From NCBI RefSeq assembly GCF_053078305.1, contig NZ_CP166879.1: DNA of 64,000 nucleotides. One strand, written 5' to 3'. The position numbers and the translations under genes are program-made. Below the pieces are notes generated by a model. The model saw nothing but the letters and a program-made list of their open reading frames with translations, ran no database searches and was not told where the DNA came from. This document shows, one piece after another, positions 59,912 through 60,898 of the stretch. Position 1 is the stretch's first letter. Each line of letters begins with the position of its first letter.

Positions 59912-60898
59912 CTAAATACGCACTTTAAGATAAGTCAGCCCCGGCTGGATCCAGCCATCAGGCTCTTTCTTAAAGGGTGGCGTATTGAAATCACAAAGAA
60001 GAGCCTCCCGCACCGCAGCATCCCTGTCTGCACCACTGGCAAGTGCTTCAATCTCTGCCGCCAGCTGCAGATATCCCATGCAGCGACCAATGCGCTTCAT
60101 CAGCCCCTGTTTTTTATTGTTCTTCAGGTAATCAATGGCAAATTCAATGAGCGTCTCACTGTGCTGGTGCGATGGCGGTGTTACTTTTCCATTTTCTGAT
60201 ATGGTGATTTTCCCGTCATCACCGGATACAACAAAGGATGGCCGGTTACACTCCCGTTCCTGGTTTTTGTCCGACACAGGCACAGTAAAATCACTTTCAT
60301 GCCCGTTTTTACGACAGTCCTCGCCACGTACCGCAGCAAATACCGACAAGGCATACTCCTTTGCTCTCGCTTCATAGTCGCTGAATGTTGTTTTCGGATC
60401 GTAGTCTTCCCTGTACATAACCGACAGAACTTCCTCATGATCAATATGAACACTGACCACGCTGCCTATTCTTTTGGTCAGCACAAGACGAGAATCTTCC
60501 CCGACTTTCACTCCTGGTGTCACACGTGCCGGAAGCTCCACATTAACCATCGCGCTCTGCACATCATCAGGCGCATTTTTTACCGGTTCGTTGACCTTTT
60601 CACGCCCCGGGTAAGTGGCGATTTTTTCCGGCATTGTCCATGAAGAAATATTCTGAAAGCCACATCGCGCAGTCCCTTCGCGTAATCCGAGAGCCGCATC
60701 CATGAAAAACTGCTTCGCCTGTTTTTTCGCCTCAGCTTCGTAAAATTCCAGCGTGGCACCTTCAGTACGGTCAAGACTAATCGCCACATATGGCGACAAC
60801 AACGACGGCTGACCGGCAATTTCCAGTGCCACCGTAACAGTTATCTTATCCGGGTAATGATTTATCCCTTTTACAACCAGTTCATATTTGTTATTCAT
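59912..60898 (-). CDS. hypothetical 328-aa protein inserted between holin and endolysin
   Basis: ORF MNNKYELVVKGINHYPDKITVTVALEIAGQ... starts 4 nt after S stop with GGGGAGAG SD; no TM or signal peptide; no family recognised. Confidence 0.7.
   Translation of the reverse strand: MNNKYELVVKGINHYPDKITVTVALEIAGQPSLLSPYVAISLDRTEGATLEFYEAEAKKQAKQFFMDAALGLREGTARCGFQNISSWTMPEKIATYPGREKVNEPVKNAPDDVQSAMVNVELPARVTPGVKVGEDSRLVLTKRIGSVVSVHIDHEEVLSVMYREDYDPKTTFSDYEARAKEYALSVFAAVRGEDCRKNGHESDFTVPVSDKNQERECNRPSFVVSGDDGKITISENGKVTPPSHQHSETLIEFAIDYLKNNKKQGLMKRIGRCMGYLQLAAEIEALASGADRDAAVREALLCDFNTPPFKKEPDGWIQPGLTYLKVRI

Follow-up and report, generated by a model that had tools for sequence, protein, structure and literature searches.

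The lysis cassette analyzed here raises the question of what a 987-nt open reading frame (ORF) is doing between the holin gene S and the endolysin gene R, and what its 328-aa product might contribute to the phage that carries it. In the window, by which we mean the whole 64,000-nt stretch of contig NZ_CP166879.1 (assembly GCF_053078305.1) that was analyzed, this ORF occupies positions 59912..60898 on the minus strand, with its ATG at 60896-60898 and its stop codon, TAG, at 59912-59914, and it is listed as a 328-aa coding sequence of the DUF1327/YdfR family on the basis of Pfam, PHROG and eight intact copies. The stop codon of S (TAA, 60903-60905) is followed by 4 nt (AGCG) and then by the ATG (GGCCCGGGGAGAGTAAAGCGATG), and the last codons of S contain a Shine-Dalgarno (SD)-like sequence, GGGGAGAG (60906..60913, minus strand), whose GGAG is 9 nt from this ATG. 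The same GGAGAG-TAA-N4-ATGA junction was found in 11 E. coli loci that were fetched. A preliminary description of this DNA had given the same geometry, a 987-nt ORF that begins 4 nt after the S stop codon with an SD-like sequence inside the end of S and that ends 36 nt before R, and its coordinates were confirmed.

The S gene (60903..61118, minus strand) encodes a 71-aa class II holin of the S21/EssQ type that starts with MYQMEK, matches the holin families phrog_20 and phrog_9876, and is 79% identical to EssQ of E. coli K-12; in homologous loci its PGAP name is "class II holin family protein". The N-terminus of S (61107-61118) reads M-Y-Q-M-E-K, that of K-12 EssQ M-K-S-M-D-K, and therefore the extension before the second Met has no Lys in the window. 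A Lys in the N-terminal extension of the phage 21 S protein marks the antiholin form. A connection between the start motif of S (MYQM versus MKSM) and the presence of a DUF1327 gene was considered and rejected, because K-12 EssQ, with MKSM, is also accompanied by YdfR. On the other side of the ORF, an A/U-rich spacer of 36 nt (59876..59911, minus strand) leads to R (59342..59875, minus strand; ATG at 59873-59875), which encodes a lysozyme of 177 aa (its N-terminal segment is rich in Gly/Ala and resembles a signal anchor), matches the endolysin family phrog_7, and is annotated as rrrQ/lysozyme in homologous loci. No SD-like run was found in the 15 nt 5' of the R start codon (AAUAUUUAAUAUAUAC). 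The RNA around the R start showed no significant structure (z-score 0.57), and coupling at a distance through a hairpin over the R start was rejected on this ground. The cassette ends with the gene for the Rz spanin (57450..57917, minus strand; phrog_13, Rz-like spanin), in which the list of ORFs places an embedded Rz1 (57512-57697).

The surroundings of these genes contain several further elements. Approximately 1.4 kb (57914-59251) lies between R and Rz and includes a strong terminator-like hairpin with a 15-bp stem just after R (59219-59251), two small ORFs, at 59003-59218 (phrog_1115) and 58857-59078 (phrog_4906), that encode hydrophobic segments, and a gene (57914-58849) that encodes an orphan type II-like DNA methyltransferase, has a stop codon overlapping the start of Rz, and is found at the equivalent place in strain FHI_NMBU_10 (L008). 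Upstream of S are a terminator-like hairpin immediately before its start (61156-61185), two small conserved ORFs that carry the names DUF826 (61195-61440) and DUF1378 (61481-61660) in homologous loci, and the gene for a 655-aa esterase of the nanS-p type (SASA family; 61799-63766, phrog_143). A search of the coding strand from position 57300 to 62000 revealed no sigma-70-like promoter, and thus the expression of the 328-aa gene is expected to depend on the late transcript. The preliminary description had reached the same view, which is a reasonable one for a gene that lies on the strand of the late operon directly behind S.

That the ORF is a real gene, and not a chance reading frame, follows from its conservation. 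Long-form copies with 93-97% identity were found in seven complete E. coli genomes, and all eight copies, including that of the window, keep the 328 codons, with neither an indel nor a stop codon. The eight copies are independent, and the prophages that carry them differ downstream of R. The mean pairwise dN/dS across the eight copies is 0.32, with values of 0.26-0.45 for the folded modules and of 0.77, which is nearly neutral, for the linkers, and the long form is thus under purifying selection. In each of the seven genomes, the PGAP annotation ends after 225 nt and describes a DUF1327 pseudogene "missing C-terminus". This is because the long form extends the family architecture; the 987-nt ORF is intact in all seven of these "pseudogene" loci (L001 6001-6987; L008-L013 3501-4487). 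One of the seven close full-length copies is located in an Stx2g-converting prophage (L010 1477-2718), in which stx2g stands where the window has the esterase/DUF1378/DUF826 block upstream of S.

It could be argued that the ORF is a decaying or neutral filler, a mosaic sequence kept between S and R by linkage and having no function of its own. The PGAP pseudogene call would agree with this explanation, as would the nearly neutral substitution in the linkers, the many alleles that are truncated, split, or frameshifted, and the presence of the full-length form in only 7 of 5426 complete genomes. However, decay is not what the eight independent copies show, as all of their codons are retained without indels and dN/dS is low in the folded modules, and the C-terminal module described below is conserved out to Salmonella, with invariant residues. 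We therefore consider a mere filler improbable.

The preliminary description had been unable to place the protein in any family, and this was not borne out. Residues 1-74 match Pfam PF07041 (DUF1327) at model positions 1-74 of 93 (E 8.2e-32), and the whole protein matches phrog_1085 from end to end (residues 1-328 to profile positions 1-296 of 296, E 4.8e-115), with separate PHROG matches for its middle part (phrog_11851) and for its C-terminal part (phrog_36381 and phrog_26186); NCBIfam gave no match for the 328-aa protein. At NCBI, 328-aa proteins with 96% identity are named "DUF1327 domain-containing protein", and homologues in RefSeq/NCBI carry either this name or "YdfR family protein". 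The 90%-identity cluster under the DUF1327 name comprises 89 sequences, mostly of 328 aa, and the exact sequence of the window is absent from the collection. The match to the family model and the slot between a class II holin and a lysozyme are both those of the family, but the protein departs from the small single-domain size of its K-12 member YdfR (103 aa) in having 328 aa and two extra modules. In our view, it is nearly certain that a lambda-like prophage carries this ORF as a genuine late gene and that the product belongs to the DUF1327/YdfR family as a long form with three modules. What the window adds is a new allele, at the usual position, of a family that has already been named and catalogued.

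The separation of S from R, which had been presented as unusual, proved to be ordinary, because it is shared by the K-12 Qin prophage, by named phages, and by at least 1307 of 5426 complete E. coli genomes. The same order, S followed after 4 nt by a gene of this family and then by R, was found in Qin, Stx2 phage 86 (orf5), mEp460 (gp55), BP-4795 (ORF47), and the loci of the seven close long-form homologues, and a contiguous segment of the holin gene and the N-domain was detected, at the level of megablast, in those 1307 or more genomes, whereas the holin alone was detected in 2434 and the full form with all three modules in 7 of the 5426. The split is therefore the normal state of cassettes of the class II holin type in E. 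coli lambdoid prophages. At 50% identity, the family is represented by 63 sequences, and its range is limited to the Enterobacterales (Escherichia, Shigella, Salmonella, Citrobacter, Hafnia, and Rosenbergiella). The protein is thus homologous to a routinely annotated protein that is normally found between S and R, which the preliminary description had itself named as a finding that would speak against its reading, although the family has no assigned role in lysis. What had been observed was correct; the interpretation is partly supported and largely superseded. Two points deserve to be recorded, namely that three modules are fused in a rarely seen architecture and that annotation systematically mistakes this form for a pseudogene. 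The gene is of modest importance, first because approximately one quarter of the complete E. coli genomes, Stx phages included, have this conserved gene inside the textbook S-R-Rz cassette, and further because of the mis-annotation and of the module shuffling described below.

The modules were delimited by BLAST, by phmmer against 1.84 billion representatives, and by jackhmmer, which gave three independently occurring units: N (approximately aa 1-77), M (approximately aa 100-205), and C (approximately aa 206-328). On the minus strand of the window, the N module (aa 1-77, 60668..60898) is the DUF1327 domain, identified by Pfam and predicted by AlphaFold2 to consist of three strands followed by a helix. 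It is joined by a linker (aa 78-108, 60575..60667) that is predicted to be disordered (pLDDT 22-38) and at which the alignment has a coverage of 1, with no homologue covering it, to the M module (aa 109-196, 60311..60574), a beta-meander with a helix according to phrog_11851, hhalign, and the predicted topology. A second linker (aa 197-220, 60239..60310), also predicted to be disordered (pLDDT 24-49), leads to the C module (aa 221-328, 59915..60238), which is defined by phrog_36381 and phrog_26186 and is predicted to have three strands and four helices (pLDDT 82-94).

For the structure prediction, AlphaFold2 was given a query-registered alignment padded with X (A2), whose rows join N, M, and C fragments of different proteins. 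Because the rows mix proteins in this manner, contacts between domains are meaningless, and only the folds within modules were used. The model had a mean pLDDT of 68.9, with three strands and a helix at residues 4-73 (pLDDT 71-92), a short helix, four strands, and a long helix at residues 109-196 (58-78, falling to approximately 45 near aa 131-140), three strands and four helices at residues 222-327 (82-94), and disorder at residues 74-111 and 192-217 (below 50). A model from the single sequence was unusable (pLDDT 40.6), and a MAFFT alignment of the domain fragments (A1) was discarded, as it stacked every fragment on the N-terminus. When the profiles of N and M were compared by hhalign, they matched with a probability of 62% (E 7e-5) over the helix motif T-x-x-x-Y-E-A-x-A-K. 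This match and the shared predicted topology suggest, short of proof, that M is probably a diverged second DUF1327-like repeat. No relation was found by hhalign between N and C or between M and C. The C module, an alpha/beta unit with no match in Pfam, contains the conserved motifs GRCMGxLQxAAEIE and NPPFK..W..PG..YL, and its invariant residues, in the numbering of the whole protein (alignment A4), are G271, R272, P308, K310, W316, P319, and Y323.

Each of these modules has been combined freely. The M module is also seen as stand-alone proteins, the C module is encountered in E. coli and Salmonella both by itself and behind other N-termini, and two DUF1327 domains stand in tandem in proteins P0056 and P0060. 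In most alleles, N and C are held in common and the middle is unrelated, and thus DNA matches span only approximately 59% of the gene, in two pieces. In E. coli A25, the long allele between S and R is frameshifted and split into two ORFs (L002 3721-6252), one of 182 aa with N and a middle and one of 135 aa with the C module, which are followed by a second, short DUF1327 gene; therefore, tandem arrays and decayed copies occur. Split alleles are widespread (proteins P0045, P0054, and P0115), with N carried, for instance, by P0115 (183 aa) and C by P0045 (213 aa, 203 contigs), and the N-carrying and C-carrying proteins both keep a similar segment (…IEKLE…LNKKLSV…EQFAAFYDYC…). This common segment may allow the two halves to pair, which hints that N and C act together. 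This shuffling of N, M, and C, each of which is found alone, in tandem, or fused, provides an easy genetic route to taking the family apart.

The protein is acidic (pI 5.7) and, in agreement with the preliminary description, has no membrane segment or signal peptide, since its highest mean Kyte-Doolittle hydropathy over 19 residues is 1.05 and no hydrophobic stretch was found at its N-terminus. The transmembrane or lipoprotein features of a holin, antiholin, or spanin are thus absent from it. Foldseek searches against AFDB50 returned only family members, with no enzyme-like or toxin-like fold, and those against the PDB gave no match at E <= 0.001. Phmmer and hmmsearch against the PDB sequences, with the whole protein and with the N and C profiles, also found none. 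The top matches of Foldseek in the PDB were the tandem double-stranded RNA-binding domain (dsRBD) proteins Loqs-PB and TARBP2 (E 0.027-0.064, probability 0.44-0.54), the only hint of RNA binding from structure and not a significant one, and identity as a dsRBD was rejected, because there is also no match to Pfam dsrm and the N module has no first helix of the alpha-beta-beta-beta-alpha fold.

Two other roles that had been suggested for the protein can be considered in the light of these searches. If the protein protected the lysogen, by defence or by superinfection exclusion, this would be in keeping with the mosaicism and the tandem domain duplication, which are patterns often seen in conflict genes. 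However, no family of the PADLOC-DB v2 defence models matched at E <= 0.01, no promoter-like site of its own was found on the coding strand, and the gene is coupled to that of a lethal holin, so that its expression in the lysogen would be costly. Furthermore, K-12 ydfR yields almost no reads in standard growth (Gopel et al., RNA Biol 2026, PMC13232886). A defence function is therefore very improbable. The protein could also be moron-type cargo, directed at the host or at the environment, made from the late transcript and released at lysis in the way of Stx and NanS-p without a role in phage growth. The late region does carry such cargo, a nanS-p-type esterase gene being located just upstream; like NanS-p, the protein has no signal peptide, its alleles are highly mosaic and have exchanged modules, and one close copy resides in an Stx2g prophage. 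The comparison with stx and nanS-p that had been drawn for this gene is loose, as true cargo genes such as these are located upstream of S and not inside the cassette. In addition, the family is present in K-12 Qin and in phages of non-pathogens (mEp460 and the PhiR series), and nothing enzyme-like or toxin-like emerged from the fold searches. Cargo thus seems a poor candidate, about as improbable as a filler.

The genomic context of distant relatives bears on whether the family belongs to one lysis system. These members, in which an N-like module and the C module are found at 20-40% identity, are located between the antiterminator gene Q and the holin gene, and not between S and R. They repeatedly adjoin a DUF4406 gene, and downstream of them are holins of other families (Phage_holin_2_3, holin_8/3_7) and, in one case, a CHAP endolysin. 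The DUF4406 gene directly precedes the distant relative in Salmonella prophages (L017) and in contigs from sequencing runs (L003, L014, L018), the two genes overlap by 4 nt in L003 and L014, and HicAB or ParE toxin-antitoxin pairs are found just upstream. The feature conserved across its members is their place in the late operon, among the lysis genes or immediately ahead of them, and not a partnership with a pinholin or with a signal-anchor-release (SAR) lysozyme. The presence of relatives upstream of unrelated holins argues against a pinholin-specific role.

This observation has to be weighed against the possibility that the protein regulates the timing of lysis. A soluble protein whose synthesis accompanies that of the pinholin could bind S or the signal-anchored lysozyme and thereby delay or sharpen triggering, as an analogue of P1 LydB or T4 RIII. 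For this explanation, which we rank second, the gene is always found directly behind S in E. coli lambdoid prophages, with the conserved 4-nt junction, the stop codon of K-12 ydfR overlaps the start of rrrQ, and S in the window starts with MYQM, without the Lys of the MKSM of EssQ. However, EssQ has this Lys and also has YdfR, so that the start motif provides no link; distant members precede unrelated classes of holin and endolysin and are not coupled to a holin, which weakens the role; and frameshifted or split alleles are frequent. Lambda and phage 21, which are not known to have a gene of the DUF1327 type, lyse normally. No similarity to P1 LydB was detected at the level of sequence (BLASTP E 0.83) or profile (hhalign probability 0.2%). 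A phenotype in K-12 can be read in two ways. Deletion of ydfR was a hit for envelope leakage, as scored with CPRG, at 30 C in LB without salt (supplementary tables, PMC3879167), in the screen of Paradis-Bleau et al. 2014 that is cited in PMC13232886, and essQ and rrrQ (ydfQ) are absent from all supplementary files of PMC3879167. The leakage could reflect a real protective role, which would favor a function in lysis, or polar over-expression of the downstream lysozyme in the Keio mutant, which would not. On balance, we regard control of lysis timing as unlikely.

In the literature, experimental work on YdfR was found only in PMC13232886, and it points in another direction. In a two-hybrid screen with RNase G as the bait, YdfR codons 1-72 were isolated three times (PMC13232886). 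This fragment gave two-hybrid signals with RNase G and with those RNase E constructs that contain the catalytic half (RNase E 1-597), and Rne1-598 was co-purified with Strep-YdfR (PMC13232886). DNase-resistant nucleic acid was recovered with YdfR, for which the authors could not exclude a contaminant, and over-expression of YdfR caused only minor changes in the transcriptome (PMC13232886). By sequence comparison, the N-domain of the window protein is homologous to the interacting fragment, YdfR 1-72, with 43% identity. Binding to RNase E/G, as reported in this 2026 study, is the first testable functional lead for the DUF1327 family.

The explanation that we favor may accordingly be put as follows. 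The 328-aa gene would be read from the Q-dependent late transcript, with ribosomes starting 4 nt after the S stop codon at the conserved junction. The product, a soluble, acidic, cytoplasmic protein of three folded modules on disordered linkers, would serve as a dispensable binding or adaptor protein outside the lysis machinery. Its N-terminal domain, by homology with K-12 YdfR, would dock on the catalytic half of the host RNase E/G and perhaps bind RNA, the exchangeable M and C modules would provide further binding surfaces, and RNA turnover, for instance that of the long late transcript, might thus be adjusted late in the lytic cycle. As a whole, that is, with identity, late expression, and adaptor mechanism taken together, this is the best explanation available to us and a plausible one, though it falls somewhat short of being probable. 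The mechanism by itself, a dispensable adaptor whose DUF1327 domain contacts RNase E/G, is put forward tentatively. It is ranked first because no other option is supported directly by experiments on a homologue and because members of the family occur with more than one lysis system. Against it, the RNase E interaction was shown for the 103-aa K-12 YdfR only, by two-hybrid assay and co-purification, a pI of 5.7 is not typical of RNA binders, and the close coupling to S, which is conserved in E. coli, is compatible with a role related to lysis as well.

A broader and more speculative proposal, which we think rather doubtful, is that DUF1327 proteins are unrecognised lambdoid late-gene factors that engage either the host RNase E/G or the pair of pinholin and SAR endolysin as the lysis proteins accumulate. 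The N, M, and C modules would then be shuffled parts of one complex, sometimes fused and sometimes split, of which the window would carry the fully fused form. If this were true, the best-known of all lysis cassettes would contain, in one quarter of E. coli genomes, a regulator that has not been studied.

Comparison with known systems places the gene closest to K-12 ydfR. YdfR of the Qin prophage (b1555) is the type member of DUF1327 and is 43% identical to the N-domain of the window protein over 74 aa. In Qin, the order is essQ-ydfR-rrrQ, with a 4-nt gap after the holin stop codon, and the window is identical in both slot and gap. The two differ in that YdfR, with 103 aa, consists of the domain and a short helix, whereas the window protein has two further folded modules, and in that ydfR runs into rrrQ, whereas the 36-nt spacer precedes R in the window. 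A nearer likeness in architecture is orf5 of Stx2 phage 86, a 268-aa protein that belongs to the same phrog_1085, occupies the same slot after S, and has the N and C modules in common with the window protein (56% identity overall), but whose middle module is an unrelated, apparently helical cassette in place of M. At the DNA level, accordingly, only the first 225 nt or so and the last 385 nt or so are in common between the window and phage 86 orf5 or other members of phrog_1085. With the soluble antiholins encoded beside the holin, P1 LydB and T4 RIII, the likeness is one of layout only, a soluble protein directly downstream of the holin on the same late transcript; LydB has no sequence or profile similarity to the window protein, and the distant DUF1327 relatives are not coupled to a holin. 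Proteins that bind or modulate RNase E include RapZ of the host, gp0.7 of phage T7, and Dip of phage phiKZ, none of which is related to DUF1327 in sequence or in fold. If the finding on YdfR transfers to it, the window protein would be another factor in contact with RNase E. RapZ binds the catalytic N-terminal half of RNase E, as K-12 YdfR does.
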